Source: Catajapyx aquilonaris (taxonomy: Eukaryota). Taken from it: DNA of 46,246 nucleotides. The translations under genes were made by a program, and so were the position numbers. The notes under the pieces were generated by a model. That model saw only the letters and a list, made by a program, of their open reading frames with translations. It was not told the origin of the DNA and did no database searches. Where the stretch lies: the NCBI GenBank assembly GCA_000934665.2, contig JYFJ02000807.1, positions 62,001 to 108,246 on the forward strand. Reading direction: 5' to 3'. Position 1 is the stretch's first letter. Every line of letters starts with the position of its first letter. This document shows, piece by piece, positions 1 through 25,030 of this stretch.

Positions 1-713
1 GGCTTTTCTGCCAGCCTGCCTCTCTTTCTGCAATGGCATGGAAAAATTAGTGTCTCATTGGGATAAGTGAATGTCTGAAAAAGAAAGACTTGCCCTTTCG
101 TATGTCTAACAGTCAGGATCAGTTTCTGTTGTGAAGCATCGGAAATAAAATAATTCTGAATTGGTTTTTTTATTCGCCCTCATAGTTTCAAGCTACACTG
201 TGTCATGTACAGAGAGGATTGGGTTTAGACCTAACCTGTCTGTATGTATGTAGAATGGACATGCTTGCGTTTTCAGTGTTGTGAGACACTCAGATTATTT
301 TCTCTACTGGTTTATAGAAGCTAAAGCCTCATCCAACATGTGTGTCAATTGAGCATGTTGGCTCCTTTCATTAAATAATACCGAAGCCATTCATTAACAG
401 GGGCAATTTCTTTTCTTCCACATTACTCACCGGTTTCCCTTCACTATTGGTACATTATAGCATGACCCATTATGTAATTTTGCTTCAATATAGTAAAAAC
501 ACATAGGTTTACCGACCTCATCTTCTTAGCCCCATGGTGTCATGATGCACATTGGCCGAAGTCATGTCTTGTGACAATTTTATTTCATGTTATGTGCATA
601 ATTTAAGACACAAGTAAAACATATTGTGAGATTTGGAATAATTAATCATTGCCATGTTTGAGTTTGAATTCTATTTGTTGCAATGTGTCTTATGCCTTCT
701 CTTGATGTTCCAG

Positions 714-3700
714 GAGGTGCAATAGATAAGGTGCGAGCTAATCATCTGAAGATAGATGACATATGCATTGCATGCAGGTTACTCCCAGCAAAACCAGTGG
801 AATGCCATCCTTTCTTTTCCGGAGGAATCTGTGAAAAGTGCAAGAAGAAATTAATGAAGACTCTCTACGTATGCGGAGAAGATGGAACCAGTGTAAGTGA
901 ATTGCTGTTAATCTTTCAGTTAATTATTTAGCTTGTATTATGAGTTGAATTGTTCAATGTAATAGATGATTACTGTGCATAGCTGGGCATAAGAGCAGTC
1001 CCTTGGAAAATTTTCCGGTGGGAGGGGCACAAGTGGTGATATCCACTCGCTCTGCTCACGCTGGAAAATGTCCCAGGGACTGCTGTTATGTCCAGCTGTG
1101 TACTAACCCATATATTGCAGCATACTGATAAAAACGGGAATTCCAGTAGGTACTGCAGTATGTAAAATAATTAAGGTCCCTGCAACATATCCTGCAAAGT
1201 GGCCAAAGCACTACCCAGATTACATGTCGTTCTCATTATTACTATTGACAATATTAGTTTGAATGCCATTTTGTCACTTACCCATGAATAAAGGCATGTT
1301 AGCACACCTTTTTTGTTCCTTCTTCCTCAAGTAAATTAAATGATCAAGAGTGAGCTCCCTCCAAAAGGAATTATAGGCAGTACCTGAAATTAGGGTGATA
1401 GTTTAAAGTGTCTGAACTTGAACTGGGCATGTGAAATGGAACCTGTAATGTAGTAAGATGTGCATTTATGGTTTTTCTTCTCTACAGGTTCATTGCACCA
1501 TTTGCAGTGAAGCCAAGCAAGTGATTACTTGCTCCAAACGTACTTGCAACAGGTAGTGTCTTTCATGGTATTCCTCACAGTACACATAGGGAATTATAGA
1601 GCAGCATTTCAATCATGCTTTCTTTACATTTTTAGTACGTTTTGCAAGAAATGTTTGAAGGCCTTGGCAGGCTCAGAAGAAGTGGAAACTATTTTAGGAG
1701 CTGACATCTTGACATGGCACTGTTACTTGTGCAGGGATGACTACGAAGACGTGGATTTGCTTGCCAAGCGGGATGGGTGGCAGCGCTATGTAAGTATATT
1801 ACCAGGCAGAAACAGACTCCAGAGTGTATTATTAAATATTTTTGCATTTCAGGTAATCAAATTATACTCACCTTTTTACTACATTAGTCATAAAAATGTG
1901 AGTTATAAGATTCGGCAAATGCGAGTTCTGTCCATATTTGATGGAATTGGAACAGGTATGTGAAATATTATATTTCTGCGGGAAATGTCAGTGTCCAGGA
2001 GATTTTGAAGTGACCAGTAACTCGAACGGGTTTGTTGACTTGGAGGCAATAATGTGTGTGACCTGTTTGTGGTGATCTTTCCCACAGGGGGTAAAGGCAC
2101 GATCATGATTTTTAAAACCTAATTCCTCAGCTGGGGTTCTAATTAAGCTCAGATGGAGTTTCATTTTTCGTCAAGTATTATTAGGGACACTATTAAAAAT
2201 TATTGTGGATCACTGCAAAATCAATCCTGGGAGATCTCCTTTTATTGCAAAAAAAATGGCTGCTGTTTATTGTGTAAATGATGTTAAGGTCATTAATTTT
2301 CACCCAGGACTCTATGTGTTGGATAAGTTGGGACTGAAAATTGAAAGGTACCTGGCTGCTGAGAATGACGTAGATGCGAAGAACGTGGCCACCATGAAGT
2401 TTGGAGATAAAATTAAGCATCTCAGCTCAGTGGAAAATGTAATCAGTTCAGAACTGGACAGACTGGGACAGATTGACCTGGTTCTTGCCAACATACCCTA
2501 CACCGCTGCAGAGACACCGGAGGCTACAGCTGGTGAGTGATTAACTAGATTTGCATTAAAGTGTTGTGAAGTGTAAGTAAGTATAACGTACTCTGCCTAA
2601 GACCCATGACAAGAAAAAACTGGTGAAATTGTGAGAGTGAGTAACCCTGGGTCAAGTGCATAAGCATTTCTGGTTTTCTAAACTGGTTATGGGGGCAGGC
2701 CCACAAACCAGGTTTTAATAATTAGGTTAACACTCCCTTAGGATTTATTGAAATTTCACTCTCTTGGTATCTATCTCAGAACAACTCTTAGTACTGTATA
2801 TTTGAATAGGTATTGCATAATTTCCTTGTTTACTTTGCAGAGATCATGAAAATGTTCCATGAATTTCATCGCATACTGCGAAATGTTCAGATCCATAACA
2901 ATGGGCATCAAGTTTTCTGGCTATTTGAGTGCATGACTATGGAAAAAAAGGAACAGGACATCATGACAAGGTGAGTTAATGATGCAAAGGTACGTGACTA
3001 AATATTTTCTGGAAAACTGTGAAGTTTTGTTGCCGAAATGAGGAACAGTCCCATGAGTGGACTTACTCTTGTGTGTGTAAGTTCAATTCATACGTTTTTC
3101 TTTCCTGCCTTCCAATTTTCAATGAGCTGGCACTTTACGAGATGTTTGATAATGCATCCACGTGGCATCATCTTGACTCCACAAGATTCCTAATTTAACC
3201 ATTGTTTACTCTTTGCCCCTATTACCCAAAACAGCTTCTAGCATTATCTTTTTAAGTTGAACTAGAAACTCTTAAGATGCTGTAGTTACTTCAGGGAAGT
3301 TGGTGGAAGCATGTATCATCACATGGTTGCATGATAACACAATCTCCTTTAGACTGTGTATATACAGTAATGACCTTTTCATAAGAGAAGAAGAGAACTG
3401 GAAGCAACCTTTCACACAAAGATATCTCTGAGATTAAATGGTGCAGTAAAATGATTATGCAAGGATGTGGCAAGGGTATCAAGCAAGCGCTCTTGTAGCT
3501 TAGTGGCAGAGCAAACACTTGATTCAAGTGTTGACCTGGGTTCGATTCCTGGCGGGGGCAGTGCGATACATTTACTCAGTCACATCTTGCTACCTTACTA
3601 GTCTTGTCGATAACCTTGAACACTTCCATGAAAGAAGTGTGTAAACCAAAACTTTTTGTGAAGAGTTGCTGTATCCATGCAGTGAAAAATTGTAATCTGC

Positions 3701-6700
3701 ATTTTTGGATAAAAATTTTAATGCGGTTGGGTTTGTTTGCTTTTGGAATACTCTTTATGACTATTTCAGTCAGAACTATTTGAATCAATACGTTTGACCA
3801 CGTTTATGAAATCAGATTCTGGCATGACAGGTCATGTACTGAGCAATGACCAGATACGCTACCTAGTGTAAAAAAAAGCCTTCCTGTAAATAACTAGTAC
3901 TTATTTCCCACTGAGTCGAGAGAAGTTGCCATGAAATTATTCCATGCATCTTACACATGTATAGAATACTAACATATTTAGTGTATTAGATATTAGAGTA
4001 TGTGTATAATAGTGTATATGCCATTTTATGCAGGATGTTTGGAAAATACGAAACGTATGATACCACCGGTCCAGAACACTATTCTGATTTAATAAGAACT
4101 CTGGAATTTTCTCTTAAAACTTGCAGCGGAGTTACTAGGGTCCTCCAAAGTATGGGTGGAAAAGGTCTAAGTGATTTTGGTAAACAGGGATTTGTCCAAA
4201 TTTGATGTCTAGTTAGGGCTAATAAAAGCCTCCCTGGGCCAGTTTGATATAGTTATGTATCAATGTGCCCCATTCATGATAGTGCAGTACAAAAAATTTA
4301 GTACATCCCCGAATGCCCCCATAATTATGGAATTGCTATGAAAAGTAACAGGATTGGAAAATGCTGTGTGTCTGGTTGAGGGGGCATTACTTCAATTTTT
4401 GAAAGCCTCCCATTAACAACAATAAATGGCAAAGAAATTTTGATTGACCTATTGATGTGTAATTCTTCGAGGATGTGGAATGAAGTGGTACATCAGTATA
4501 CATTCAACAGCTGAAGATACTGGTTTTGAGGAAACAAAGTACAGTATGATCAATAATTGGGCAACTTCAATAGGTTTGAGATAGTAAGGGATGCAATTGT
4601 AATGTACTATGTGAAAAGAATTGGAAAGCATTTTGTGTCTTTGATCTGTGGTAGACCATGTGCTAGGTGTCACTGACAATTGAAAAGGACATTATGTGGT
4701 AAAGGAGCCTTCCCAGTGGGCTTCATGCATTATGATAGTTTTAATTTGAGTATGTGGGGTTGCGAAACCAGTGGAATTCATAGAGCATCAGATGGACAGT
4801 TCAAAATGTGTTTTCTGTGCCATGAGCCAGGAGGGAATTTACATCTCCTCTTTTTCACAGAGAACACCATCACTGGAAATGTGCCTCTTGACATGGTGGA
4901 GAGTTGCTGCTGCAGCATCAGGAAAGGGGTGTTGTGAAGGAGAAGGCATATGTCCTCCCTTTCCCACAAACCCTGGTTGAGCTGCAGGAGCATATCCCCC
5001 TTGATGTCGCGAATGTTGAATGGAATGGGCTTGCCTGCATCTGGGAGGAAATTACCCGTTCATGAGGGATTTGTTGCGTAATGGAAGGGTGCATATGTTT
5101 TAAAATTTTGAAATATGTTGAAAACAAGTAGTGCTAAGTGCTTTGTGTACATAGCTCTTTTTATTACCTTTGTAAATTGTTCAAATTGCCCAGCCAATTT
5201 TGAAACATCCCACATATTTGCATTTACCTTGAATATTTTTTATTTCCAGTGCCATTAATACTTTCCCTTCCAATCTGCCGTCCAATGTTTTGCGACTGAT
5301 TCAGAAGGTGGGGGATGAGATGCATTGGGAAGGGTGGTGCAGGTGCAATTCTAATACATCTGGTTTGTTCATCTGGTTGTCAAGTATCATAAATTGACCC
5401 ACTAATGGGCTGGTTAATCTTACCTCTCCCCAAATCATGCTGTTATCCATGGAATTGAATCATTTCATTTTTTGGCACCAATGGTACTGCCTATGAGCCT
5501 TTTGATTTCAATTATGCAACCCAGATATAAGAAGTGATCCTTTCTGCACCATCCCTGTTTTACAGCCTTCCTATCAGTTAACAAAATTCTGACTTCAGTT
5601 TTCGAAATTTTGGATCTGGAGAAATCACAATACTCCAACTTTCATTGCAGCAAAATCATTTACGCAACAAATCCTTGTAGGGCTGGGGTAAAACCAGTGA
5701 CCTGCCCTAAGATGTGGTGTGGACTTGGGGGCCAGACAGACAGGCCATGTTCAGCCGCGGCTCGTCGGGGTCAGGGCTAAACCTGGCCGCGGCTCGGCCA
5801 CTGTGCAGGAGATACCCGTCCAGACTGGACACAGTATTTACTAATGTTACCGGTAGATGGTGCGCGAGAAAACAAGTGACCCCTGATATGTGGCTGCCCC
5901 TCTCATCACCTGTTAGCCAAAGATGGAGGTTGAAGATGTCGTCATTTTGCACCTTTTCTTCAATTCAGTTCCCAGAACATGGGGAGTTGCCCTTGTCTGC
6001 GCCATGATTTTCCCATGTTCTTCCTAGCTCTCCTGCAGTCACACCACACCGTTCAAACCGGTACATGCACACTGTTCCCAGCTGTTCCTACCTGGCCATT
6101 ACTCATCACCTCTCACTCAAAAGCACGCGAGTCTTCTATGTATGCGCTACAGTCATGGCCGGGTTGGCTGGGGTCCCAACCAACTTTGGTCAAGTGGGCT
6201 AAGCTCTACCAACTTTGTTGGGAGTGCCAAGGCCATGGCTCCAATGCTTGGACGGTGGTGGCCTGGACGGGCTGCGAATTTGCCTTGGCCAGCCTAGGCT
6301 CAACATGGCCTGTCTGTCTGGGGCCTTGATTGACATTGCCACTAATGCAAAAGATGGTAATGCCAAGAAGCCACCATCAGTAGCTCCATCTGCTGCCATA
6401 CCTCAGCCACACCAACTTGGCAGAGAGCTGACTTAACTTTATACCAAAATTTTAAAAAGAATGCAGGACATGCCTGGGATTCTCGTGGACCCTACAGGTG
6501 TCCCATAACCATGAGATCTCACAAAAGTAGTTCCGTAACACCAAAACTCAAAAAGTGGTGTTCTGGTGTTCTGAGCTTACAGCAGGGGTGGGCAAACTTT
6601 TTTCTCCATGGGCCTCATCTAACAAGAAATTTCAACTTATAAAAAAAGTTTGCAATTATATATCCATTGATTTAAATGAACTTTCATTAATTGCATAAAT

Positions 6701-9700
6701 TACCATTAAATTCTCTGAAAATCAATAAAATTAGATAACTATATCAATGAAAATGGCCTGTATAAATAAAAAACAATTTTTCAACATTTTGAGGAATTCC
6801 GAAATTTTTGTTTGTCTTTTATCTCGTGGGCCGTAGTTTGCCCATCCCTGGCGTACAGGGTTAAGTTCCAAAGACTTGCAGGTGGGTCTGACCAATATAA
6901 TTTTTTAACTCTGGCCCTCTTTCCCTCCTCACCTTTCTGCACCAAGGCCTGGCCATTTCCCCAGCCCCTCGTTCCCAATCATCCTCTGTAAGTTGCTTCC
7001 CAGAATACCAATTTTTGCCAGATTCATAAATGTAGCCATCTTGGAAATTGTTGCAAGCCCTAGTCTCCTGACTTACGGAGGGACCATGAGAATCCTACTC
7101 CATACTGGCAACAGCTCATTATTTCCATTGAACAACTTCTGAAAATGGGGCCAAGTTTAGATGGCCAGGCAGCTTCACTTCATCTATTGGCATTTCTTTG
7201 TGGGATAATTCCTAAGGAGGTGAAATTAATCCACAATTGGAAGTCATGCTAGTCTTTAGTGGGCCTTTGCAAGATAGTTCAATGCGCAAGTGAGGCAAAA
7301 TGTTATGATTACAGATTTGATAGGGACAGATATGTGATGTCAAAGGTCAGCTACTTGGCTTGATGTACTCTGTGGACAACAACTTTTTAACAGTCTAATT
7401 GTTGCAACAAGCTGTAATGCCACATTCTGTCCAAAATTATGTAATTTTTGTTGCAATGGCAAAAATTGCTATACCTACCTAATTTGAAAGATATGCTACT
7501 GACCCTGCATTAAAATAAAAGTTTGTGTAAACTTTTAGTTACAGTATTAAATTCATATTAACATTGCTAAATTACATTAATATTTGGAACATGAAAAGTA
7601 CTATCGGGTTCAAATACTTTTGGCCACTTTATCCTGGTCTTGAAGCAACCCTTCGCGCAAACCCCATGTTAAGTAGGTATGTGTGTGAAGGGTTGCTTCA
7701 AGACGAGGATAAAGTGGCCAAAAGTATTTGAACCCGATAGTACCCTACACCAATAAGCACATAATGAAGGGATCATTTTCACAGGAATATTTCTTTCAGT
7801 TTGGAAATAATTTCAGTGAGGTCATACATGTGGCAATTACAAGTTGCCTGTACCTTCCATGCAATAGGCTGCTGGTTCTGATAATTGCTGTCATGTCATA
7901 CTCACTGTAAGTGACATGGTTGCATCAGCTGAACCAATTGCTAGCAACATGGTAAGCTTCGAAGGTGACCTCTTCAAGCTGTCCATTTAGGGATTTAATC
8001 AAGCCTGGAGAGGCGTGCTCCTTCCATCAGCATTAACGTAATGGCTTCTGGAAAACTTTGGTGATGGAGTACTTAATAAATAACATTTGTGTATGATGCT
8101 TTGTAAGCTTATTTAAATTAAGATGTATTTTTGCAGTAACTTGGGTGCATGTTTGAAAGTTCACATGCATTTATTTTCATCATTACATCTGCACATTTAC
8201 GCCCTTGCCCCACTGTCAGGTGTTTGGCAATGCCCTTCACATGGACTGGTAACCTAAGTTTGCAGCCATTGGCACTCATGGTTTTTATTATACAGGGTGT
8301 ATCTGAACTCAGTGCCCCGACGTATATGACTGCCTTCCTAGCCACCAGAGGATCGATTTAAGTATAGGAATCATTATGTTTGGCCGCCGCATTACGGAGA
8401 TAATTGGCCGCAAACATGTAGTACAAAATATCCTGTCGGTTAGGCCACCCATCGAACCCTCCCCCAGTCAGAAGGCTGTTAGGTCTGGGGGCGGGACTTT
8501 GTTGGTTTGTTGCCCACAGGTGGTAAGGCCTCTTTGGCTAGTTACACCAGAAAGTTCGATTTAAAAGTCAGAAGGAGCGATCAGGCAAAAATTGCTAAAG
8601 AGTGTATCTCCGTAATGCGGCGGCCAAACATAATGATTCCTATACTTAAATCGATCCTCTGGTGGCTAGGAAGGCAGTCATATACGTCGGGGCACTGAGT
8701 TCAGATACACCCTGTATAAATATTTCAGTTTATTTCTGTCATTCTTCTTTATGGTGAGAACTCATCACACACCTAAACTGATAATTTTTTTCAGATCACC
8801 AAATAGATGGTTCACTCGGTTAAAGGTTGGACTGGAAGGGAGGGTGGTGTGGGGCCATTGAAAAATGGTTGTCTGACCATTTCCTTGCCAAAAGTAAATG
8901 TGCAAGTGAAGTGCTGACTGATTTTGCAGTGAGTTGCCAGGGGTGGTTAAGCTAATGAAAGACCTGCCTTCGACAAAGCTGCAGTTCTTAAACTTCACGT
9001 GAGACAGAGGGCAATCCAAGCATGGAATCAAATCTGGGACCTTTTAATTCATGGACACAAGCATTATTATTGAACTTCTGTTGCAGTGGTTGAGAGGGTT
9101 AATGGTAGTAGCTCTAACTTAATTCGAGATAAACTTAGAATGTACAGTATTTCAAGAAATTCACCTTTTGCTTAGGTGAATACTTGTGTCGTAACATTTA
9201 TGAGGTGTTTGGAAAATAATATAAAAGCATGGTAACACAGGTAGGGGATGCAATTCTCAATCGAAAGTACTGGAGCAATTTGTCATGAAGGTACTCCAAC
9301 CCTGCAAAGTTTGGCAGAGTTATATCTGAAATTTTGGTATCAGTGATGTGCCAAAAAACAAGATCCAATGAGGTCTGCAATTCCTCACTATTATCCAGTT
9401 GGGCACATGGGCTATACAGGGTGTGGAAATTTAAGGTGCTTTCACTTTGGGGATGGTAGATGGAAAAGAGGTTTCTTGGGTCAGCCTAGTTACTGAGATA
9501 ATGGGATATTTGTCATGCAGTGGAACATTTCCTGGAAGGTTTGCACCCCACCACACATGGGGCGGATCTGAAAGGTCCTGCTTGCTTACATCTCGTTAAC
9601 CCCGGAACTGTGACGTGGGTCTTTTTGGACCCCAAAGGAATTAAAATGCATTAAAATTATAATTACAATGAACTTTGGCCATTTAAAAAATGATATAACA

Positions 9701-11199
9701 GGAAGTGAATGCTTATTTTGAATTAGCAATCATTTTAGGCATTATTCAAGAATGATTGCATATAGTCAATACATTGAAAAGTATTATATAAAAATTAATA
9801 ATAATTAAAATATGGATGGGGTCCTAAAAGACCCCATGTCACGGTTCCAGGGTTAAGCGAAAGAACAATCTGATGCCACACCAGCCGTAGTTTGCTGAGC
9901 ATGCTTGCAGACGTATTCAGGGACATGAGAGGAGGAAAGAGCTGGGTGGAGGTGGGGCTGAATGTGATGGTACATCGTTCTTAGGTTTAACAGACTCTTT
10001 GTGAACTTGGTGCAGGTCAACATATACATAGGTGACTGAGAGTGGAGGGATTATTGTAAATTATCCTTTTGGGGCACCCTTGGAGGTCGTTTGTAAACAG
10101 GGGACTTCCTGTACTGAAAATGAAACATTTTCAGTATTGCAAAAATATTTAGGATAAATAGTAGGCCTATAATATGCAAGTAAGGGGAGGTGCGGTGGCC
10201 GAGATGGTAACGCCTCTGCTTGCTGAATGAAAGGTCCCAAGTTCGATCCCTGCCTGGGAGCTCCCTTTCGCCTGCATCAGGATGGTCTCTGGCCCTCGCG
10301 TTGGAGGTGTTTGGCAACCTAACCCCCTGAGGAACAGCACACGATCCTTTTACCGACATTGCACTTGCACCTACATTCCCTCCCCAAAAATCCCTATCCT
10401 TACCCAATGTCCTTGATATCCCTGCACCGGAGTCGGAAGAAAAATGGAAAATAACTAAGAAAATATGGTGGTGTCCTCCCCCCCTAAAAGAGCCACAGGC
10501 TCTCTCACGGGGTAGCAAAATATTTTTTTTTTTAATAAATAAAATAATATGCAAGTAAAACTGGGACCTTTTTGCTCCTGGAACTGCATTAAGAAATTCA
10601 GTTGATGCAAGAAGCTTTATGACGAGACAAGGTGTTGGTTTGAAATATTACTTTTCAGTTACCGGGAAGACACACTGGAAATCACACTGATGGTGAGAGA
10701 ATAATTTGTATTTTCTCCATTTAGGTTCTTGGAATGCGAGCCTGTAACTCTGGATCCAATGCTGATTCCCAATACGTACTTTGGGAGATCATTTTGGGGC
10801 AACATTCCTGGATTGCGGGCAACACTGGCCACAGAGAAGTTGGGAGCACGACTTTCTCTTCAGGAGTTCCTTGTTGGAAATTCCAAGCCCAGACTGAGTG
10901 CAGAAGAGAGCTGCATGCTGCTCTCTCTCCCTAATCCATCCGGAAGTACTTCTGGAGCCGATGGAATGTATTTCACTGCCTCTGCTCCAGAGATGAAGTC
11001 CAATGCCCTGTACCCCATGCAGTGGTTAAGTGAGATAGTGACTGCCTATGGTCTGAACAGCCAGTTGGAAGGCCTGAACAGGCTCTCAGTGGTGGCCTGC
11101 AGGAGACTCCTCCGCAGAGCCTCCAGCGCCTTGGTCACTGCTCAGATCTTGAGAACTCTCACGCACTTCTTTACCTGTGTGAATGATGATGAACACTAG
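714..11199 (+). CDS. Dnmt3: DNMT3-family protein (ADD + C5-methyltransferase fold), predicted catalytically inactive (DNMT3L-like); 5' exons probably lie outside the window
   Basis: Exons 714-892, 1488-1552, 1636-1789, 1853-1955, 2308-2532, 2841-2970, 10725-11199(TAG). All introns are GT-AG and splicing keeps the frame. ADD: CIAC..HPFFSGGICEKC..EDGTSVHCTICS..CSKRTCNSTFCKKC..WHCYLC. Methyltransferase fold: RVLSIFDGIGTG, YLAAE, IDLVLANIPY, FHEFHRIL, FWLFECM, RFLECEPV, FWGNIPG, C-terminal RRLLRRAS..LTHFFTCV. Confidence 0.92.
978..1100. mobile_element. Short MITE / hairpin element in DNMT3-like intron
   Basis: About 40-bp imperfect terminal inverted repeats: catagctgggcataagagcagtcccttggaaaattttcc / ggaaaatgtcccagggactgctgttatgtccagctgtg. 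TA flanks the right side. Confidence 0.7.
3489..3560 (+). pseudogene. tRNA-like sequence (tRNA pseudogene or SINE head)
   Basis: A-box TAGCTTAGTGG and B-box GGTTCGATTCC with cloverleaf-like arms. The acceptor stem has three G-U pairs and the anticodon loop is not 7 nt. Confidence 0.6.
5728..6325. mobile_element. PIF/Harbinger (Tourist)-like non-autonomous DNA transposon
   Basis: TIRs ggggccagacagacaggccatgttcagcc / ggctcaacatggcctgtctgtctggggcc, with a 3-bp direct repeat TTG on both flanks. Confidence 0.7.
6583..6850. mobile_element. hAT-type MITE
   Basis: TIRs CAGGGGTGGGCAAACT / AGTTTGCCCATCCCTG; 8-bp TSD gcttacag / gcgtacag (1 mismatch). Confidence 0.85.
7601..7740. mobile_element. Near-perfect palindromic MITE (CTATCGG termini, TA flanks)
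   Basis: About 55-60-bp arms starting ctatcgggttcaaatacttttggccactttatcct, with the reverse complement ending ccgatag; TA on both sides. Confidence 0.85.
8293..8714. mobile_element. Tc1/mariner-like MITE with 110-bp TIRs
   Basis: 8293-8402 is the reverse complement of 8605-8714 (no mismatch seen); CAGGGTG termini; TA target site on both sides. Confidence 0.92.
9600..9852. mobile_element. piggyBac-like MITE
   Basis: TTAA on both flanks; termini ccccggaactgtgacgtgggtctttt / aaaagaccccatgtcacggttccaggg. Confidence 0.8.
10184..10543 (+). mobile_element. tRNA-derived SINE
   Basis: A-box tggccgagatgg, B-box gttcgatccc, AT-rich tail, 15-bp TSD ataatatgcaagtaa (10169-10183 / 10544-10558). Confidence 0.85.
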
Positions 11200-11289
11200 G
11201 TGAGCCCAGGAATTTGCCAATTTTTGCTTCCTGTCTGCATGCCAATTTGTAATGGATTACTTTCTGCTCTTACCTACATATTCATAATT

Positions 11290-11542
11290 GAAGACCTTGG
11301 GAGAGAGGGAGAGAGAATGGATCAAGGTCCACCTCATGTTGAGATATTGAAATTTCAAATTTCGAATGTCCATTGGGTTCCATTGTAACTCCCACTTTTG
11401 GGACCTTCCATAGGGGACTATGATCATTACTCCACAACCACAACCAAACCATCATATTCTAGGCTAGTGAAACTATCTTCTGAGATATGGAACTCATTTT
11501 TGATGAAAGGAGAACCTTGATCGTTCTTCCCCCGAGGTCTTC
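11290..11542. mobile_element. MITE with GAAGACCT termini (Sola-like), copy 1
   Basis: TIRs gaagacct..gatcaaggt / accttgatc..aggtcttc; AATT on both flanks; homologous, in inverted orientation, to 13786-14036. Confidence 0.75.
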
Positions 11543-13785
11543 AATTGCGATATACTTCAGAATTTTAGTAGTCGTAAGAGGAACAGAGATGCACATAATA
11601 ATTTATCATCACAAAAAACCTGCTTCATATCCAAGAAGTAACGTTGCATGGTTATGCACTGTATATGATATATAGCATGTTTGGCCAGGGGGTCCCAAAG
11701 GTGCATTGTGATCACCATTCACTTTGAGTCTTAGAACATCAATTGACTATTCTTAACTCGAGCAACTCATTGCATGGATTCATATCTCGGGCCTTCCACA
11801 TTTGGCAACAATGCTGGGCGTGACAGTTTGCAGGAGATGGGACCTATCTGGGCTTCATTCATGGCAACAGTAATAATATTCTTTACACGCATCTACGTTA
11901 ATTATTTAGATGGTAAGACTTGTTTAGCTGAAACCCCATCCTGTTGAATATTTGTTTCATGTCTTGTTCAGATATGACTGTTTGCTCCATTGATCCACAT
12001 GTTATCTGATGAGAGAATTTGAATTTAGAATATTCTCTTTTCTCTTATGACAGAGGTCGTACATATTGAAGAATGAAGATTTTATTCATTTCAGACTCTC
12101 AAGCAGTGACCAAGTTTGATGAAGAATGTGTGAGTGTAGGTAATTATTATTTTTTTGTGTTAATATTCGAATGGTTTTAGATCATCGTATAAAGAACCAT
12201 CAAAATATTCAATGAAAATGTAGTGTTTTGTGATGCATAGCACCAACAGAAATTATGATTCCATGTACCTGTAAATAAAATATTTACTTTGTGATGACCA
12301 TAATTGACGTTGCAGAGAATTGCAATGGGAGTTCAAAACGTGCTCAGTAATGCTCTGTAAAACATTGATTTGTGTTGCAAACTTTTCCTATTGTTTACGT
12401 AGAGATTTATATTGATTTCATGGGGGTGCTGAAGCAAAGGGATAATGTGTTGAATCTGCAAGGACGGTATATTATTATATGGGTTAGCAGTCTTGGGGAC
12501 GTCATCTAAAAATAGTGCTTGAAATCTTAAATGTTTTACTTTATACTAAATGTGTGTGCATGTATGTACAACAGTCATACACGTCCCATGTGTTTCCAAA
12601 TTTAGCTCACATCCATATCAATGAAAATTATGCAGCCACTCACCTCGGTTGCCTCATCTTCAAATTTTTTGCATAGAGTTATGTATACCATTGGCAAGCC
12701 CATTTAGTGAGCTTGTCAGTGATGGTGATGTGTTTGACACACTGCTGCACTTGAAGGTGAGACAACAAGAATGGCTGGTAATGATCTTGCATGAATGTAT
12801 GGATAAATAAGGATCCTGAAGTGACAATTTCGAAATCTACAGCCAGATGCACATGCCATCTTCCTACCTTCTGACAAAGCCAGAAACTCTTGGGTGTGAC
12901 TGCATATGTTAAAAGACATTGGCTGCACTTGGGGACTCTGTTGATGTGCTGACAAAAATTGTATCTGAAACCCACATTATTTTCCCTCGAGACTGCAAGT
13001 AAGGTCACACCAATTTTAGTAATGCCTGCACACAAAATTGACCAGTAAATGGCATGAACAGAAAGGTGTGATTATGTGGGCCCCACACCCCAGATTATTT
13101 AACTAGTTACTTTCATTCTTTTGTATTATGTATTAGTTTAAGGTAAATGGGTTATCTGGCCATTTAATGGCATTTTGTCGTGCATTTTTACTTCCCCCAT
13201 CCATTTGGCATTAACTGAACACTGCATGCATGAGAAGGCAGATTTTATTGACTGCATGAATTTTAATCATAACACCTGGAGTGGTTTTCTTTGGTGCAGT
13301 GGTTGTCATTTTATGAACTTCAGTCCAGAGGATGTCTAAATGTTTGTGTTGCCGTACAAGTAGTTGTACACGTAATAATTTGTTCCACTTTTTGTGCACA
13401 TGGTATTGTAATGAAAAGTAATAAAAGAAAAGGGGAAATCCTTAGTGTGATTTATTTTCTAAAATACTGTAGACAGTAAACACCCCAACTTGTCACAGAT
13501 GTCGCTTCTGCAGTAAAATGTGGACAACAAAAAAATGTAATGGAATGGTGGATCATGTACAAAGAAGGGAAAACAATCTCTTGGTCATGACAGGTAAGAG
13601 TATCTATTCTCTCAGTACATTTTGCATGACTGGATGTAACATGGAATTACCCAAGAATTTCTGTTTCATGTGAAAGCAGGTCTAGGTTATTGAAGCATTT
13701 GAAGGCAAAAATACTTCAATATTACAACAACTGGACAACTGTAGAGCAGTTGTGTGAGGGATATGGTCAGTTAAGAGAAGTATTT

Positions 13786-14774: not shown

Positions 14775-17700
14775 CTACGACTGCTTATTGTCAGTATCGG
14801 GACGGACATGAGGAAAAAGCGAGTGATAGGACGGTAAAGGATCGGAATCGAGTGTTGTGTACGGCGGGGGAGGGTCGTACTGGGACCCATGACCTCCTCC
14901 TCCTCCCTCCCCCAGTAATTGTGCGGGGTCGCATTGATGAACCGCCATCTCCAACCGAGGTGCCGAGAGGATTACGGTGACATTGTCCGGAGTAGTGACC
15001 TGCAAGAGAGGGATGCCCTCAGGCGGGGATTGGAGGTATAGCTGAGGATGTGCACCGGACAGGTCGGTTGGAGGGTACCTGGTGTCGGTCAGGATGTCAC
15101 TCCGAGACATCCTAAGGTGGTGCCTCAGATCGTGAGTGCACTTAAGTAAGCACGATATTAAACTAATTATGCAGGCTAATATTATTCCGCCCGCAAATGC
15201 GTAAAGGAAATAAATGCCGGAGGATCTTCTCTCCTTGTCGGCCTGGTGTGCGACTTCGTGGTCCGGTCTGCTGCCTGCAAAAAAAAACAAAACAAACAAA
15301 CAAACAAACAAACAAACAAACAAACAAACAAACAAAATCTTATGAATTATGTAATTATAAGTTGGCCCTGTAGGCAGGCCCGCCTCCAGGCATAGACGAC
15401 ATAGGCAGCCGCCTATAGGGCACCGATTTTGGGAGGGCGCCACAAACTAAAGTTGATTATAACACTATGCAAGAATGCAACACAATTTTTGTCAATGGGA
15501 GTTCATCACTATTTCCATGTAATTTAGGTCACTCGTATGGGATCCCATAAATGACCATTCATTTTGTCTGAAATTTGTTTTTGACCTTGGGGGCAGTCAA
15601 AATATCAATTTCCTCGAAATGTAGGGGGCATTCCAAATCAAGTGGACCAAAATGAATACCGTGATGGGGAGGGGGCGCTCTAGAAATATTTTGGAAGAGG
15701 CGGAAAATGAGCCCTCTTTTGGAGATATACAGTATTTTGGTTAGTGGAAGTGGTCAAAACTCAATAAACATAATTATACCAGATTATACCCGTACTGTAT
15801 ATCAAATGAAAGAGGCAGAAGAGGAGAATGGGCATGTGGAATTTGTTTTCCTTGAAAATGCAGCTAGAAAAAAGTGTGTGTGGCATTCAATTTATCACAG
15901 TCATGTCCAACAATTTGGGTCCTTGAAAATTAATGCTAATATGTAATATACCGTATGTGCAAAACATTAATTTTTCTAATATTTTCTCGCGAACCATGTA
16001 TGAACCAGGCTTCAAACTGATCAACATATTATACATTGTGTGAATCACAACTGCCTCCCAATATGATTGATGTGATTCAAATCCTTGGACATGTGACATT
16101 GGAATCTCACACAAGTTTTTCTGGCTACATTCATGAGGAAAACGAATTCCATAAGCGCATTCTTATCGTCTTTCTCTATTATTAATATACATTGTTTATT
16201 TGGTTTTGATCACTTCCACTAATATTACCAAAAATATATCCAAAAGGCCTCATTCTCAAGCCTTTTCCAAAATTGCGCGATTTTGCCCTCTCCGTGACAT
16301 TACTAAATAAATAAAATAATAGTGAAACTTGATATGCAGCGTTATGTCATAGGTGCGTAGTCTATAGCTGTGATTTTTTTTCTCACCAAAATCAGAGATG
16401 GCCGAGCAACATTTGAACCTGAATGACCCCTATATATCGAGGAATTTAGTTTTTGACTGCCCCAAGGTCAAAAAGAAAGTTCAGACAAAATGAATGGTCA
16501 TTATAAGTTACGAGTGACCCAAGGAACACGGGAATAGCAACGAATTCCCGTGGACAACAGAAAGTTGATTTTTGTTGCATAGTACAATAGATCGTCATAT
16601 AATATGTTGCAGAGGGGGCGCCAAGTGTACTAATCGCGCCTAGGGCGCCGAAGGCGCTGGATCCGGCCCTGCCTGCAGGTTATGCTGTGCGGGATACAAG
16701 GGTGCGGTTGCATAACAGGTCAGGATGAGACTATTACACTGCACTGGTTGCTGGAGTAAATAAAATTTTCGCAACCCCGGACTTGACCCCTCGACCTGCA
16801 GACTTGACCAGTGCAGATTGAGTAATGAGAAATTCACGCCAGATCAGCGTGCATTACAACTTGAAAATGCATATTGCAGTTATACTTACTGGCCTGGAAT
16901 ATTTGCTTGCATTCATTCCCTTCTTTGATATAACCATGTCCGCATACAACCCGGACATTATCGCATCTGATATTCTTGCTAATGCATGTGTAGTCATTCC
17001 CTGTGCATTGCTTCTGTGGTCTCGCAGCACTTAAAGCAGGGCAAGCTATGGAGTATATAAGTAACAATACTGTACTCACACCTGATATTTGAGGACAGAT
17101 TAGTGGTGTTTCGCACTGTACCTCTGAACACGACGAAACCAAACTTCAACGCGATTGGCTCTTTGGTCTCCAACCATTCAAATTTAAATTCCACTGTGGT
17201 AAGTCCTTTCGCTGTTTGTCGAAGCATGTCTCCATCCTCTCCGACGTACACAAGCTGTCCTGGTTGAATGTGCACATCACCATTGAGGTTGCGATGGCCA
17301 CACATCCGTTTGGTTAGGTCAAACTGTCCAAGCGTTAAATGCACCATAAGTTTGGATTGTGGTACAAGAGATTATTTACGTATATCATACAGTACCTTAA
17401 CAAAATCTATACATTCTCCTTGACTGTCACTCCTCAGTGACATATGCTCAACAGTAACAAGTAGCTGATATGCATCGGGTGCTTGAATCTGAAGCGTGCA
17501 AGAAGTGTTGAAAGAGGTTTGAGGCACAGGGTTTATGGTCAGAGTCTGAGCTATTACTCCGGAACTGTTAGGCACTTTAACAGTCACCAGTTTCCTCTCA
17601 GTATTGAAAATGCATGAGTCAGGTTTTATGAAATCTGAAAGCACATTTGGTGGAATGAGACGTATAATGCATCAAAACACTATGGCTATACTGTATTTGG

Positions 17701-17786
17701 TACTTACAGTGCACGTACTCACGATCGTGATAGCCTGATATGTTGGTAATTACGATGAAGAAAATGAGGGCACATGCGTGTTTCAT
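14775..17786 (-). CDS. CUB-like/LDLa-like type-I membrane protein with tandem PY motifs, paralogue A
   Basis: Exons 17786-17708 (MKHACALIFFIVITNISG signal), 17634-17396 (..FNTSCTLQIQAP..CIDFVK), 17323-17122, 17045-16890 (CTGNDYTCISKNIRCD..CGHGY..GNEC), 15274-14775 (TM IYFLYAFAGGIILACIISLISCLL; PPPPY..LPSYHSLFP). Confidence 0.85.
15279..15337 (+). repeat. A-run plus (CAAA)n microsatellite forming the pyrimidine tract of paralogue A's last acceptor
   Basis: Run of A followed by repeated acaa, directly next to the 3' splice site at 15275-15276. Confidence 0.9.
15375..16671. mobile_element. hAT-type element with nested inverted-repeat elements, inserted in intron 4 of paralogue A
   Basis: Termini caggcccgcctccag / ctggatccggccctg; 8-bp TSD cctgtagg (15367-15374) / cctgcagg (16672-16679). 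Internal inverted arms at about 15465-15633 vs 16421-16582. Confidence 0.8.
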
Positions 17787-17827
17787 AGTATTTGTGCGAG
17801 GATTTTTCGAAGCACGATGTTTTCAGT

Positions 17828-17935
17828 GGCATGGCCAAAAATCTATATAAGGAGACTGAGTTGTGAGCATGAGTGGGAACATTTGTTGATTTAAAGGTTC
17901 AGACATGTATACCGCCTGGGGCCATCTTGAATCCA
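17828..17935 (-). promoter_or_regulatory. Conserved upstream cassette of paralogue A (shared by the tandem family)
   Basis: On the + strand: catggccaaaaatc, tgagcatgag, gccatcttgaatcca (YY1/Pho-like CAAGATGGC on the - strand). Equivalents at 20675-20770, 23354-23467, 26658-26740, 29221-29347 and partially 31576-31612. Confidence 0.65.
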
Positions 17936-19047
17936 TACTCAGCATTTCAAACGGTGCAGAGTACAGAGCCTGCCACTGCTGCCAGTAACCAGAATGGAAA
18001 AATCAATTTTACTTATTTATCACGCCCTAATTCTGGCGTTAATGTCAAGTGTAGTGGTCTGTATTAATGATGCGGCTATAATATTATTAATGCCACAGCA
18101 TTATTATGGGGGAATATATTAAAAATTTGCCCTCAATCCTACCCAATGTCGCATTATATTTTTCATCTTCTCATATTATTATTATTAGGGGATAATAAAG
18201 TGACACATTTATATTACAACAATATTTATAGTATTTAATTTTTCAGATATAATCCTGTTCAAACTTATGTTGCAAATATAATGGAGGGTTTACTTGGTTA
18301 ACTGTATGAATACATATTGTTATTTTACATGTACTTATATACCAATGACGTGGGCCATTGTTAAGTAGTTTTATTTAAGATGCATGTTACGAAGTTGGTT
18401 TTGACACATTAAACAATACGTCGACTATCAGAGGTTTAAATAAGCTATATCATGTGTGGTTTTTGTTCCATGAACTCACCCTTATTCAGAAAACCACTAT
18501 GCAGCATTTAATTGTTCACGAAAACGCATTAAAATTGACAGTATTCGTTATCAAGTTATAATTATTGATCTTCACCTTGCCAGACTGTGAAACTGTACAA
18601 CACTTGGCCTGATAAAAAACACAATTTCAGTACCTGTAATAAGGAATATGTATGTCTTTATACCAGAACAAGCGTTTGTATATGAAAAACAGTCAATTCT
18701 TGCCTCACCTCTGACTTCGAGCCCTTGATAACAGTGGCTAATTCATTCTTATGACACTAGCATTTAACATGTTGGAAGCTATCAAGCTTCTATATTTCAA
18801 GATGATGTAAAGATATTTGTCTCATTTTCTGTCCTATGAAGAATATTCTCTCAGCTCTTTGCAGCTCTTTCGAAGGACTCAATCGTATTTTCGCCATTGT
18901 TAGGTTTTTGATTTGGCATATCATACTTGCTTGTTGCGAATACTGTCCACCGCTTCAAGACTGCAAGAGTTACGCACATCCTATAAAAGTAACAACAAAA
19001 CACTGGCAGTGAATAAACAAAACCTGTCCATTTCACTCAAGTCCCGC

Positions 19048-20628
19048 TCATTTACAACATGGTTTTTCTTCATTCGGTGCAACAACATCAGGAAAGAGTG
19101 TCTCGTACGCAGGAGGAGGATTGTTGCTGGGCAGTTGAGCATAGGACGGTGGAGGATCCTCGATGGGTGCAACACACTGGTGGTCATCCCTTCTTCCCAC
19201 TGTGGGGCAGCTGCTGCCATCACTGGTAAGCGGCGGGGGTGAATCAGGCAGGGCCACGATGGTGTAGTCCTCGGCGCGATTCATCAGTGGCGCAGGCGGT
19301 CGCGCGCGTTCTGGTCGCGTGCGAGGTTGCGTCCGTCCAAGAATGCTCCTGTTGGATGACCGTACCACTCGCCTTGTGGATCGCAAGCGGTGACCTGCGT
19401 CGCGACAGCATTCGTGCAGCGAAGAGACGATGCCGAAGAGACAGAAGGTCAGCCATATCCTGCCTGCCAGGGTCAGGGCGAATGGCCACCTCGATGAGGA
19501 CTTCGGAACCTTTTCCCCTGGTTGGATGGGCCTGTCTGAAAATTATGAGGTGAGGTTAGAGTACGTACATTGCAGTTCCATCGCATGTAATAAAAATTCA
19601 CTTACTGGTTTTAGGGACATGCTTGCATCCATTTCCGTCTGCAACGTAACCAGGTCCGCAGTCAACTCGAAACACTTCGCACTTTAGAACTTCGTTAATG
19701 CAAAGATGGTCGTTTCCAGCGCACAACTTTGCAGTTTTCGGCACCCCGTAATCGGTACAAACTATCAGGAACCAACGTATATAGCGGTTATGACATTATA
19801 AAGTACAGATATCGTACTATGTATTCAAAGTTGTCTTACCTTCAAAAGTGGTAAAAGTGAGTTTTAAAGAGACACGCTCTCTTCCGTACTCCTTCCTGTC
19901 CAATCGATTGTCTGGTCCAAACTGCAAGTGTACTTGCATGGCGTCGTCTGAAGTATGTTGGTACAAATCGTCGACATGGGGACGTGCAGCAAAAACCTTC
20001 GGATACATGATTTGGTCTGGCCTGATGAATATTTCGTCATCGTAATTTCGTTGGCCACATAACGGCGCAGTCTCTGCGTGGTCATTGGCACCAAACTGCA
20101 AAAGGTTTTTTTTCCCCCTTTCATTAGAGGCGTCTTCGATCAATGACAACACTATAGCACCTCTCTTGCTACACGTGATGCTCGTTGAATTATTCACTTA
20201 ATTTTAAAGAAATATACGCAATGTGTCTTACCTTTAAATAGTCTATGCAGAGGCCGTTCTTCTCCTTCCTAAAATTCACCTCCTCCACAACAGCAAAGAG
20301 ATTCAATCCTTTAGGAGCCGCAACCTCAAATTTGCAAGAAGTGTTGTACGTGTGGTGAGTCACGTGATTGACTTGACTCATGTGTACTGTAACCCCGATG
20401 TAACCCTCCGGTACCATCAACGTACGTAACGTCGTTGGCTCCGTTCTCAAATCACATATATCTCGAATCGAGTCTGCAATAATTATATAACTAATTATTG
20501 TCTGGATTCCAGAGGTGAAATAAGGTCCTAATTGCTTGAGGGTACTTACAGTGCAAGTACTGGTATTTGTCGGAGTCCGCCGCCTTTGCTATGATGATGA
20601 CCAGCATGATAATTGAAGTGCGTTTCAT
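19048..20628 (-). CDS. CUB-like/LDLa-like PY-motif membrane protein, paralogue B
   Basis: Exons 20628-20550 (MKRTSIIMLVIIIAKAA), 20473-20232, 20095-19840, 19761-19606 (CAGNDHLCINEVLKC..CGPGY..GNGC), 19535-19048 (TM WPFALTLAGRIWLTFCLFGIVSSL; PPPSY..PPPAYETLFP). Confidence 0.85.
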
Positions 20629-21883
20629 GGTTTAGGGCTCAGGTGTCCGACTGGCAGATAGGCTATGTCAGGGGCATGGCAAAAATCTATAACTCCACTG
20701 AGCATGAGCGGACGTCACTTCCGAGATTGTGACAGAGAGTGCGGCGGGGATTGAGCCATCTTGAATCCACCTACATGCTGAAGTACATTATATAACTACT
20801 GTAGTTCTTTGTGCAGTTAAAAAAAATCCAATCGACTTTTTACTTGCTGTGTTCGTTGTTGTATAAGATCTCGTGACATTATACTGTTGGCATGCTGGGG
20901 GTATATAATTTCAAAGAAGGTCAACCTTATCTATATGTTATTTTTCATTTCTGCTATAGGCCCTACCCAACACACAGTTCGAAGTGGGATTTAAAAATCT
21001 TTATTGCGTGATAAATAAAAAGTTGCATTATAAATGAGAGCTTATCACACATATTTTTATTATAAAAACTTGAGAAATTTCTAGAAATATAGAACCTACT
21101 TAGACAATCCCAATGTTAAAACAGCGTTATTATAGGCTAGTAGCTTAAACTTTACCTGGAGATGTCCTACGACGCCGCTGTATAATATACCGTACCTCCT
21201 TATTATACTCCCCTTAATCATTGCTATATAACAGCCGATGCTTACTTCAGTATCAGCATTCATCCAAAATAGGGATGTAACCATCATTTTGTCCCCCACT
21301 GGGACTATGTCACTAAAAGGGGGTTGGGTCAGCAACTACGGATAAAATGTGCACAAGTGAAACATATGCTTCGAACAGAGTGTTGGTGTTTGTTTTGAAA
21401 AAGCACAAAATATTGTAGTGTATCACTGCAGTAGTTTTATTACGAGGTCTGCATAATACCAGCACTATTATGTATATTTTTGTGTATGTGAAGGCAATGG
21501 GGGGGGGGGGGGTATTTTTAAAAATTGCGTACTTTACTTGAAAATTCAGTCCATGTTGCTACAGTTCTTTTCCATAACTGTGTTGTTAGTGTCACTAGAT
21601 CAAATACGATGGTGCTACGAAGGCCCTAATTTGCATAATTTTTGTAGAAACGTCACATTAGGGAGCTCGCCTCTCATTTTATGCATATTAGTAGAAGTTG
21701 CCTTGTTGAGGTGATCTATTAATTTTTGGTGTATAAAACCTAGCTAATTTTATTGAAGTTGGAAATGGGGCTTCTACAAGGAAAATGTCAGAAAGTGATC
21801 ACTACACTATGCATGCACAGGCTCCTCATCATCACCATAATTATGAGTATAAAACCCGACATATAAATGCAATATTACAGTAG

Positions 21884-23307
21884 TTAAGAGTTTCTTCTGC
21901 TGCACATATCAGGAAAAAGTGATTCGTAAGGAGGAGGAGGGTTACTGCCGTGGACTTGAGCGTAAGATGGTGGAGGGTCGTGGTGGGAAGGACTGGGTTC
22001 GATCCTGGCTGACCCACGTGAGGTCATCAGGTCAGTTTCTGTGACAACGATGACGTCATCCGGAGGAGCACCTTCTGCTTGAGGCCTGGATTGCTGCAGT
22101 CGCGCTTGAGGAGACTGATACAGTCTCCTGTGAGACATAATGTCCTTATGGGAAAGTGTCTGCCTCCATGTGAAGTAGACAAAGCACAAGAGCAAGTAAA
22201 GGATCAGTCCACACACAAAAATAAATTTAATCGACAATATTCGACTTCCATCGAAACGTATTCCCAGTTCGTTCAATGAAGACTTGCCTGTAATGAAATG
22301 TTATTTTAATTGTCAGACACCATACACTATTGCAAAATTGCAGAAACATCAATTGTTTCTCTTAGTGTTATATGATAAGATGACTTACCTCCATTTCCAG
22401 GAAGTGATCTGCATTCGTTTCCAAAATTATAGTATCCTCGTCCGCAGTTAATACCACGCCTGCACTTCACATTTTCATTGATGCATACGATATCGTAGCC
22501 ATTGCATTTCTTCCAGTCCAATCTATTATCAGGAATGCAACCTGTTAAGGATAATACCATTAGCATAACTCAGGAACCAAGCCAAGAATTGCTCATCTGC
22601 CTTCAATATGGTAGCCAGAAAACTTACCTTCAAATGCGGTGAACACTAGTTTCATTTGAGGAACAATGACGTTTGAGCCTGATTTTTGCTCAGGTCCTAA
22701 ACTCATGTGCACCTTGATGACGCCATTGGATGTATCTTGAAACATGTGAGCCATGTGGAAGCCTTCATTTCTCGGTTTCAACTTGCCTGGTTTCACAAGC
22801 ACATCTCCAGAATAGAACACATTTCCACATGATGGTTCAGTCTCTTCACCATTAGCACTAAGCTGAAGGTCATTATAATAAATATTACTTACGTAAGTCA
22901 CACTTTGGGTCAAATCATACCTTAATGTAATCTGTACAGTTTCCATCCAGTTCTTGACGTAAGGACAAGCTTTCGATGGCTACAAATAAATTCAGGAATT
23001 TAGGGGCATGGACCTCAAATGTGCAAGACACGTTGTAAGGGAGGGTGCCATGCGTCCGTTTTATAGGAAGCATTTGAACTATCACCCCGTTGTAGCCATT
23101 AGGTACTGTGAGTGTACTGAACGTGGAAGCGTAGTAGCACACGTCATTCATGTAATCTGCAACACACACTTTGGTTAACAAGTTTTTGTCGTAAGCTAAC
23201 AAAATAATTATGAGGTTAATCGACTTACAGTGCCAGTAGGGGTAGGTGCCAAAAGCAGTCGTATTTACAAGGAGCATTGCTAGAGTGAGAAACGATGCTT
23301 GTTTCAT
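21884..23307 (-). CDS. CUB-like/LDLa-like PY-motif membrane protein, paralogue C
   Basis: Exons 23307-23229, 23156-22921, 22862-22628, 22541-22389, 22287-21884; TM FIFVCGLILYLLLCFVYFTW; PPPSY..PPPPYESLFP. Confidence 0.88.
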
Positions 23308-24418
23308 GGTCTGCCGTGGTCAATCTTCGAATCCACGGCGATGAGGACGTCGCCATTGCAAAAATCGATAGGACAATGAATTGAGCATGGGCGAAGCACG
23401 TGGCAGATTCAAGAGTATGCCGAAAGGCCCGGAGAGAATATGACTGGTTGGTGCCATTTTGAATCTATGGAGTTTACAATGGGAGTATGACGCAGGCTAA
23501 TAACTTACCACTGGGATTGTATAGGTGATCACAGTGAACTTCTCAGATGACAGACTGATTTCGAATTTTTATTCAGATATTGTGTAGGTTCGTATTTTGA
23601 GTGCCCACTTTGGCAGCTCTATTTGCTGGGAACAAACTGTTTTCTAATCACTAGCTATACAAACATATTATTTGACACTCTACAGTTCAAGATATTAAGT
23701 TTCCACCCTTACACAGAGTGCATTAGTTGTAGGAATGCCTACCAGTATATACGAGTATGACACAAATCTCGACTTGTGGACTCTGAAAAAATGCATAAAT
23801 TCAAGAGTCAGTATATTGTTGCCAATATAGTTTGAGAGGGAGGAGTTCGATTTGGGGAAGTTTAAGTTCTATCACTTTACAATGTCACCAAAAAGTCTAT
23901 ACAGGGTGTTTCACTAGGTAGTACCCCCAAAGAATGGGTGTCCATAACTGGAGCATTTGCACACTTGCATATAAAACATTTTTACGCGAAATTAGCGTGT
24001 TTAATGTGGAACGCGTATGCATTGGATGGAAGAGCAAGTCTCGACGATTCGAGTGGTATTTTTTTCGAGGAATTCTTAAATCAATTCAATTCCCCTGGAA
24101 GGAGTGTCCGACGTAATTTTTTTCCTTGACGTGTCCATCACTGGGACACTTACCTTATAATATCTTTGCTGTCGTGCGGAGTGAATCCTAATTAATAGCA
24201 TTGGTATTAATCCCCAAAATAAATACATTGCTTACGTAGATTAATATTGTAAACATAATGTCATGCTCACTTACTTTACAAGTTTTCTGCGTAATATTCA
24301 TTTATTTAGTAAGCTCATTTTATTTCAAAACTTACCTGAGTGAAGTTTCACTGTGAGGCATTCTGGTTCTGGTATAGCTTCTTGACTTCTGTGCTGAGCA
24401 TTTTTTTTAAAAGTAAAT

Positions 24419-24830
24419 GGGAGACGTAGTGGCGCTGTGGTAACGTATGAGCCCACGGATATAAGGGTCCCGGGTTCGATCCCCAGCCCGGGCTTTCCCC
24501 CCTTTATCTCATGCAGAGTTGGGTCGTCTCTGGCTACGTCTAGGGTGGTGATCCTTGACGTAACCACCCGGGGGAACTCACAAAATGTATCCATATTAGT
24601 CTTTCGTACTGCTCTTTGCACATCCCCTCCTAGTTACCCTGCCCGTGGGCCTGGGGGCTTCGTACAAGGCACCAGTTAATATTGAACTACATCAATATCG
24701 CTTGGGGCAATTAGTCCTCCCCGAATACCCCGTATTAAAGGGGTGGCAAGGGGTATATTTAAAAAATAATAATTTGAGAGTAACTCTGGACCAAAACAAG
24801 GGGTGGAGCTTCGCAGTGGAGAATAAAATC
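24419..24830 (+). mobile_element. tRNA-derived SINE (3' end approximate)
   Basis: A-box gtggcgctgtgg, B-box ggttcgatccc, body ending near aataaaatcaa; no clear TSD. Confidence 0.7.
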
Positions 24831-25030
24831 AATGTATAGTTGAAGGGTAAATAACGTAACGAGCATTTTGACCATTTTTTATTGACTGGACCAATATCAC
24901 CAAAGAGGGCCCACGCCATTACACTTACCGTACTGTACAAAAATGCGATTCACATGGACAGAAAATAAACAGCCTTTGATTGGCACACCAGATGATAGAA
25001 AAAGAAAATGAAGGGTCGTTATCTGTCTCA

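Follow-up and report, generated by a model that had tools for sequence, protein, structure and literature searches.

Is a DNMT3-family gene that has lost its catalytic residues still maintained for some other purpose, or is it a copy on its way to being lost? The question is raised by the left 13 kb of a 46,246-nucleotide stretch of the Catajapyx aquilonaris genome (GenBank assembly GCA_000934665.2, contig JYFJ02000807.1, positions 62,001 to 108,246 of the forward strand). The whole stretch is called the window here, and positions are counted from its first letter. An earlier note, made by a model from the letters alone, had described an intact but catalytically dead DNMT3 in the window and proposed that it resembles DNMT3L. 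Follow-up alignments, searches and sequencing runs suggest an expressed, long-maintained, non-catalytic pseudo-enzyme of the DNMT3 family, a reading to which we give about an even chance of being right. It is read as long maintained because 453 codons have stayed open and all splice sites are intact despite a terminal branch of 4.55 changes per column.

Gene structure and family identity

Sequence reading and scripted splicing join seven GT-AG exons on the + strand into one gene. Read from the ATG at 683, the joined frame is 1362 nt long, which is 453 codons plus a stop, and it has no internal stops. Each junction of the seven exons has its AG acceptor and GT donor, so the claim that the exons splice in frame without stops was borne out. 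The ADD domain and motif I were located at 714-1955 (exons 1-4), upstream of position 2308, where the earlier note had started the gene; 2308-11199 holds exons 5-7 only. The parts of the gene are as follows.

Exon 1: 714-892 (683-892 if from the in-frame ATG), + strand; first (GATA-like) zinc finger of ADD
Exon 2: 1488-1552, + strand; beginning of the PHD-like finger of ADD (C-x2-C ... C ... C), placed by AG/GT junctions, frame and cysteines aligned with canonical rows
Exon 3: 1636-1789, + strand; remainder of the PHD-like finger of ADD, matching the ATRX ADD in PDB at E=6e-04
Exon 4: 1853-1955, + strand; linker and motif I (VLSIFDGIGTG), placed by alignment
Exon 5: 2308-2532, + strand; motif II with its Glu retained, SSV as motif III, ANIPY as motif IV without Cys, substituted catalytic loop
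Exon 6: 2841-2970, + strand; well-kept helix matching the DNMT3A/3L interface helix, and motif VI changed to ECM
Intron 6: 2971-10724, + strand; 7.75 kb with a tRNA-like element and high-copy repeats, and no DNMT3-like alternative exon (no tblastn match at E<1)
Exon 7: 10725-11199, + strand; RFLECEP helix, degenerate motif VIII, degenerate target recognition domain (TRD), motif IX and motif X, with the TAG stop at 11197-11199
Intron of the 3' untranslated region (3'UTR): 11200-12094, + strand; 895 nt, GT..AG, with gt at 11200 and ag at 12093-12094, seen as a joint in a sequencing contig described below
3'UTR exon: 12095-13435, + strand; end inferred from the extent of the same contig, AATAAA at 13420-13425

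The TAG is the final codon of exon 7 and the next base starts an intron, which puts the entire 3'UTR in a separate exon. Intron 6 contains a tRNA-like element at 3489-3560 (+ strand; Rfam tRNA, 39.7 bits). Repeats at 7507-8757 and 9592-10425 in intron 6, and at 11260-11676 in the 3'UTR intron, reach a word depth of 6,000-58,000 in X1, a DNA sequencing run that may be the source of the assembly, compared with about 30 for unique DNA. They are probably families of the short interspersed nuclear element (SINE) type.

By its sequence matches the gene is a member of the DNMT3 family. A tblastn search with six canonical DNMT3 proteins (P0001, P0002, P0004, P0005, P0007 and P0009) matched all seven exons, including exon 1 against P0004 at E=3e-12 and exon 6 with 52-54% identity to P0004 and P0009 over 26-27 residues. 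Against PDB, exon 7 matched DNMT3A (E=4.8e-09), exon 5 matched DNMT3C (E=3.5e-07), and exon 1 matched the ADD domains of DNMT3L (E=1.2e-09), DNMT3B (1e-06) and DNMT3A (8e-06); exon 6 alone gave no useful match there. The better match of exon 1 to human DNMT3L than to DNMT3A or DNMT3B is probably chance or convergence. Exon 1 (716-892) and human DNMT3L have in common a V-(K/R)-A-N stretch ahead of the first zinc finger. Orthology with mammalian DNMT3L was considered and rejected, as the methyltransferase-like exons found no DNMT3L chain (exon 7 at E<=1, exon 5 at E<=10) and as the CpG pattern and the identity of a neighbouring protein, both described below, show a host that is not a vertebrate.

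An exhaustive phmmer search of 1.84 billion representative proteins with exon 7 found 12 proteins at E<=0.001 and none at E<=1e-10, with identities of 27-32%. All 12 are canonical DNMT3, aligned with both GSPC and ENV present, and the 10 that were looked up are named or recognisable DNMT3 proteins, from ticks, a millipede, a spider, a killifish, an annelid, a crinoid, a hagfish, a frog and a mussel. Neither exon 7 nor exon 1 had any match in word-based protein searches. Pfam scans of single exons placed PF21255 (ADD) on exon 3 at E=0.0014, under the curated cut-off, and did not find PF00145.

Loss of the catalytic motifs

The catalytic motifs were compared in a 13-row MAFFT alignment of the window protein with 12 canonical DNMT3 proteins. 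Motif I, the SAM loop (FxGxG), is kept as FDGIGTG, in a segment that matches 0.80 of the consensus, and motif II retains its Glu. Motif III reads SSV, where 11 of the 12 canonical rows have GDV or similar. In motif IV the window protein has ANIPY, with Pro-Tyr in place of the Pro-Cys of GSPC that all 12 canonical rows share. The cysteine of this Pro-Cys is the nucleophile of C5 methyltransferases. After motif IV the loop is shorter by 5-7 residues, and it agrees with the consensus at none of 15 positions, in a stretch where canonical conservation is 0.88. Motif VI, which includes ENV in every canonical row, is FECM and retains the Glu alone, while motif VIII is YFGRSFW, with the first Arg lost and the second present. 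Motif X is RRAS compared with the canonical G(R/K)(S/A/T)W, whose Trp is found in all canonical rows. At F315, R426 and S429 (motif VIII/X) the window protein departs from columns that are otherwise invariant. The changes to motifs III, IV, VI, VIII and X and the shorter loop that the earlier note had listed all hold in this alignment.

The most degenerate part of the window protein is the stretch from TRD to motif IX, which matches 0.07-0.20 of the consensus and which we take to be the part missing in DNMT3B3. Judged by these residues, cytosine methylation is almost certainly beyond this protein, because it has lost the nucleophile Cys together with most of its catalytic loop, the first of the two motif VIII Arg residues, the TRD and motif X. 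The earlier note had also named an alternative exon supplying GSPC and ENV as something that would overturn its reading. No exon rescuing PC and ENV was found in the 46-kb window, intron 6 included, by tblastn with the same six canonical proteins at word size 2, the best match outside the gene having E>=0.088. A tblastn match containing SVPVIR at 18609-18722 (E=0.34) was taken as chance.

Conservation by domain

The ADD domain is N-terminal to the methyltransferase (MTase) domain, and all of its zinc-binding cysteines align with those of the canonical rows. It keeps 13 of 14 canonical-invariant columns and is 25-40% identical to the canonical rows, whose median identity to one another is 38%. 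On this alignment, the ADD is conserved at the normal rate for DNMT3, and the statement that motif I and the whole ADD are kept was correct. The MTase part keeps 33 of 67 invariant columns, and its identity to the canonical rows is 27-33%, compared with 45-89% among the canonical proteins. The two parts differ in column retention at p=0.0026 (Fisher), and it follows that some of the protein was under selection during the greater part of its history. For a random frame as long as 453 codons, the chance of meeting no stop is p ~4e-10.

The losses within the MTase part are uneven. Motif I and the helix that follows the catalytic loop are the best kept, and the RFLECEP helix and FWGNIPG come next. 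In their agreement with the consensus, the first two equal the canonical proteins; the post-loop helix matches 0.67 of the consensus and the second interface helix 0.47. We take this post-loop helix and the RFLECEP helix to be the interface helices of DNMT3A and DNMT3L. The constrained parts of the protein would then most likely be the ADD, motifs I-II and the interface helices.

The alignment and tree that the earlier note had proposed gave a clear answer on divergence and none on placement. The median branch is 0.58 changes per column, compared with the 4.55 of the window protein, and this long branch joins at an unsupported node of a tree without a DNMT3L row, so the sister group is not readable.

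Transcript evidence and the second version of exon 7

X5, a sequencing run of 2022, contains a contig that looks like a spliced transcript. This contig, record 15 (1761 letters), covers 10780-11197 and resumes at 12093-12500, which is a + strand GT..AG splice into the 3'UTR exon. A further 935 letters extend past 12500; if collinear, they end near 13435, about 10 nt beyond the AATAAA at 13420. The 3'UTR joint is present among the X5 joints listed, and none of those listed lies between coding exons. Depth gives a second view of the same run. At a depth of 11.9, the bins across 418-2085 imply 123, 58, 98 and 221 covered nt, compared with 121, 58, 98 and 224 nt of exon content in the model, and the model has no exon content in bin 1-417. 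The depth of X5 fits spliced cover of exons 1-4, and the gene is most likely expressed. The check for a spliced mRNA was thus answered in part, by the 3'UTR joint and the depth over exons 1-4.

The about 123 covered nt in bin 418-834 fit a start of exon 1 near 714 rather than at 683. In-frame ATGs at 683 and 692 are possible protein starts if the acceptor at 712-713 is unused. Exon 1 probably begins at the strong acceptor (714) and not at ATG 683, and therefore additional 5' exons probably lie beyond the window edge. A PWWP domain was not found by tblastn of canonical DNMT3 proteins in window positions 1-713, the gene's 5' end lying off the window.

X1 holds a second version of exon 7, which spans 10717-10819 and 10995-11193 and is about 5% different. 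The two versions have about equal depth in X1 (28-32 for the second version, 25-27 for that of the window). None of the 10 amino-acid changes in the second version restores a canonical residue. X5 has the window's letters at all 15 exon 7 variant sites listed, and the second version is absent from X5 at these sites. The second version could be a paralogue or a very divergent allele.

Weighing the explanations

Several findings weigh against a maintained pseudo-enzyme. Among the exon 7 differences listed there are at least 15, of which 11 are non-synonymous and 4 synonymous; the ratio of non-synonymous to synonymous differences per site (pN/pS) is 0.81 over the two spans, and an omega of 0.2 or below is rejected at p=0.01. 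The second version jumps from 10823 to 10996, an apparent skip of 172 nt, which is not a multiple of 3. No close relative or orthologue was found among the 1.84 billion representatives, where the best of the 12 matches to exon 7 has at most 32% identity. Neither X5 nor any other listed run is on record as RNA, and X5's cDNA-like reading comes solely from the GT..AG joint. One of the two interface Phe has a His (H259) at its place in the alignment, and the positions that we take to be the Arg residues of the DNMT3A homodimer and DNA interface are Val and Cys in the window protein. The near-neutral differences in exon 7 make partial decay a live rival. The gene would then be a transcribed duplicate being lost, with catalysis gone, no useful constraint left and a stop merely not yet acquired. 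The 172-nt skip, the missing orthologue and the very long branch all speak for such a duplicate, which we consider rather unlikely. Neutral decay to about 30% identity would not spare 453 open codons and 12 splice sites, nor would it leave 13 of 14 invariant columns in the ADD beside 33 of 67 in the MTase part, and it is the window version that X5 has at all 15 variant sites.

If the protein is indeed a maintained pseudo-enzyme, its role may be that of a DNMT3L-like partner, which is plausible by analogy. The ADD, apparently a functional reader of histone tails, would bring the protein to H3 tails, and the MTase-like scaffold would pair with an active DNMT3 encoded elsewhere and act without catalysis, as in DNMT3L, DNMT3B3 and, as proposed, Daphnia DNMT3.1. 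The stronger form of this idea, an independently evolved DNMT3L-type cofactor at a separate locus in an animal that is neither a vertebrate nor Daphnia, docking on an active DNMT3 through the interface helices and contributing the ADD's reading of H3, is put forward tentatively, at less than even odds. A methylation-independent chromatin reader would share the conserved ADD: here the ADD, possibly with an upstream PWWP, would target chromatin, and the dead MTase fold would have some other role with no DNMT3 partner. The His at the interface Phe and the loss of motif X and of the homodimer Arg residues agree with this, and the authors of the Daphnia DNMT3.1 work discuss methylation-independent gene regulation in the excerpted sections of their report (PMC8016896). 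Motif I and the DNMT3A/3L interface helices are the best-kept parts of the fold, which is hard to explain without a partner or a cofactor pocket, and we think such a reader distinctly unlikely. It is highly improbable that the protein is still an enzyme, through an alternative exon restoring PC and ENV or through unusual chemistry on another substrate. Motif I and the Glu residues of motifs II and VI are retained; against them, the Cys nucleophile and the TRD are gone, as are the motif III Asp, the motif X Trp and the first of the motif VIII Arg residues, and the tblastn search (off-gene E>=0.088) found no extra DNMT3-like exon in 46 kb.

Comparison with known inactive DNMT3 proteins

The earlier note had called such a protein little described, which overstates the case. 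DNMT3.1 of Daphnia magna is a published invertebrate precedent that has been mutated and phenotyped, so this kind of protein is already known. In excerpts from two reports (PMC8016896, PMC11963560), DNMT3.1 lacks five of the six MTase motifs, has ADD and PWWP domains and is highly expressed, its mutant has a starvation phenotype, and the authors propose a DNMT3L-like interaction with the active DNMT3.2. Like the window protein, it is an expressed invertebrate DNMT3 paralogue in which the ADD is present and catalytic motifs are lost. By its published description DNMT3.1 keeps motif VI, whereas the window protein keeps motif I and has ECM at motif VI; DNMT3.1 has a PWWP, while the 5' end of the window gene lies off the window. 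No Daphnia protein was among the 12 matches of the exhaustive search with exon 7, and the window protein therefore likely arose independently of DNMT3.1, here compared by its description.

Mammalian DNMT3L, reported only from eutherians and some marsupials in the relevant portion of PMC6976628, also combines an ADD with an inactive MTase-like domain, and its interface helices are kept in the window protein too. The window protein differs from it in having an intact motif I and a full-length C-terminal region, and its MTase exons match DNMT3A, DNMT3B and DNMT3C. Two other inactive proteins are described, in excerpts of their reports, as partners of an active enzyme: DNMT3B3, an inactive splice form of DNMT3B (PMC7846833), and plant DRM3 (PMC2965745). 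DNMT3B3 is an isoform of an active gene, whereas the window gene is a separate locus, and DRM3 belongs to a rearranged plant lineage, unlike the window protein. The canonical invertebrate DNMT3 proteins (P0004 from a millipede, P0005 and P0001 from ticks, P0009 from a spider, P0003 from an annelid and P0011 from a mussel) have the same order of ADD and MTase and a similar C-terminal end. Their identity to the window protein is 27-40% by domain, and the canonical rows keep GSPC, ENV and conserved motifs VIII and X, which the window protein does not. A full-text literature search surfaced no other invertebrate case of an inactive DNMT3, and the terms 'inactive' and 'pseudogene' do not occur in the article text of a survey of 138 Ecdysozoa (PMC8821070).

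In mammals (DNMT3L, DNMT3B3) and in plants (DRM3), a central part is played by inactive paralogues that steer or stimulate the active enzyme of de novo methylation; in invertebrates, the way in which methylation is targeted to gene bodies is still poorly known. Were the window protein to join Daphnia DNMT3.1 as a second invertebrate case of independent origin, it would suggest that such partners originate recurrently. If it is an independent cofactor, animals would have given rise to pseudo-methyltransferase partners on three or more occasions, and plants on one. It would also serve as a natural experiment, showing what an accessory role requires of the MTase fold, here motif I and the interface helices. 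A decaying copy would hold little interest.

Genomic context

The observed/expected ratio of CpG is 0.28-0.43 over 1-14 kb of the window and 0.62-0.92 over 14-37 kb, with GpC near 1. A mosaic of CpG depletion marks invertebrate gene-body methylation. Because the gene body is CpG-depleted beside undepleted neighbours, we infer that the genome methylates DNA and that the DNMT3-like gene is methylated in the germline; its CpG depletion would fit germline expression. The CpG ratio steps sharply at the 3' end of the DNMT3-like gene, where a germline-methylated gene body would seem to end. The mosaic depletion agrees with the earlier note's assignment of the DNA to an invertebrate, as does a neighbouring DRC5-like protein that is only 33% identical to vertebrate DRC5.

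Open reading frames (ORFs) at 41520-42656 (+ strand) presumably resemble the N-terminal part of a Helitron Rep/helicase; Pfam had no match for the ORF at 41821-42324.

At least seven related genes, with two or three exons each, form a tandem array at 14775-31474 (- strand) and 37506-39226 (+ strand). Its proteins combine a conserved, extracellular-looking module (...C-I-D-Y-x-K-V) with a hydrophobic span, and their tail contains two PPxY-like motifs (PPPSYAQ ... PPP(P/S)Y(E/K)(S/A)LFP). A CUB-domain identity is not backed by Pfam, which found no family for the four family ORFs scanned; the Atlas gave only a weak CUB-domain lead (0.91, 152 shared features), with nearest clusters that are mostly annelid.

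The DRC5/TCTE1-like neighbour is a leucine-rich repeat (LRR) protein encoded by an intronless 641-aa ORF at 32354-34279 on the - strand, with an LRR_6 match at E=3.7e-19. This ORF lies in the sole GC-rich stretch (0.54), encodes a long acidic/basic low-complexity tail and may be a retrogene.

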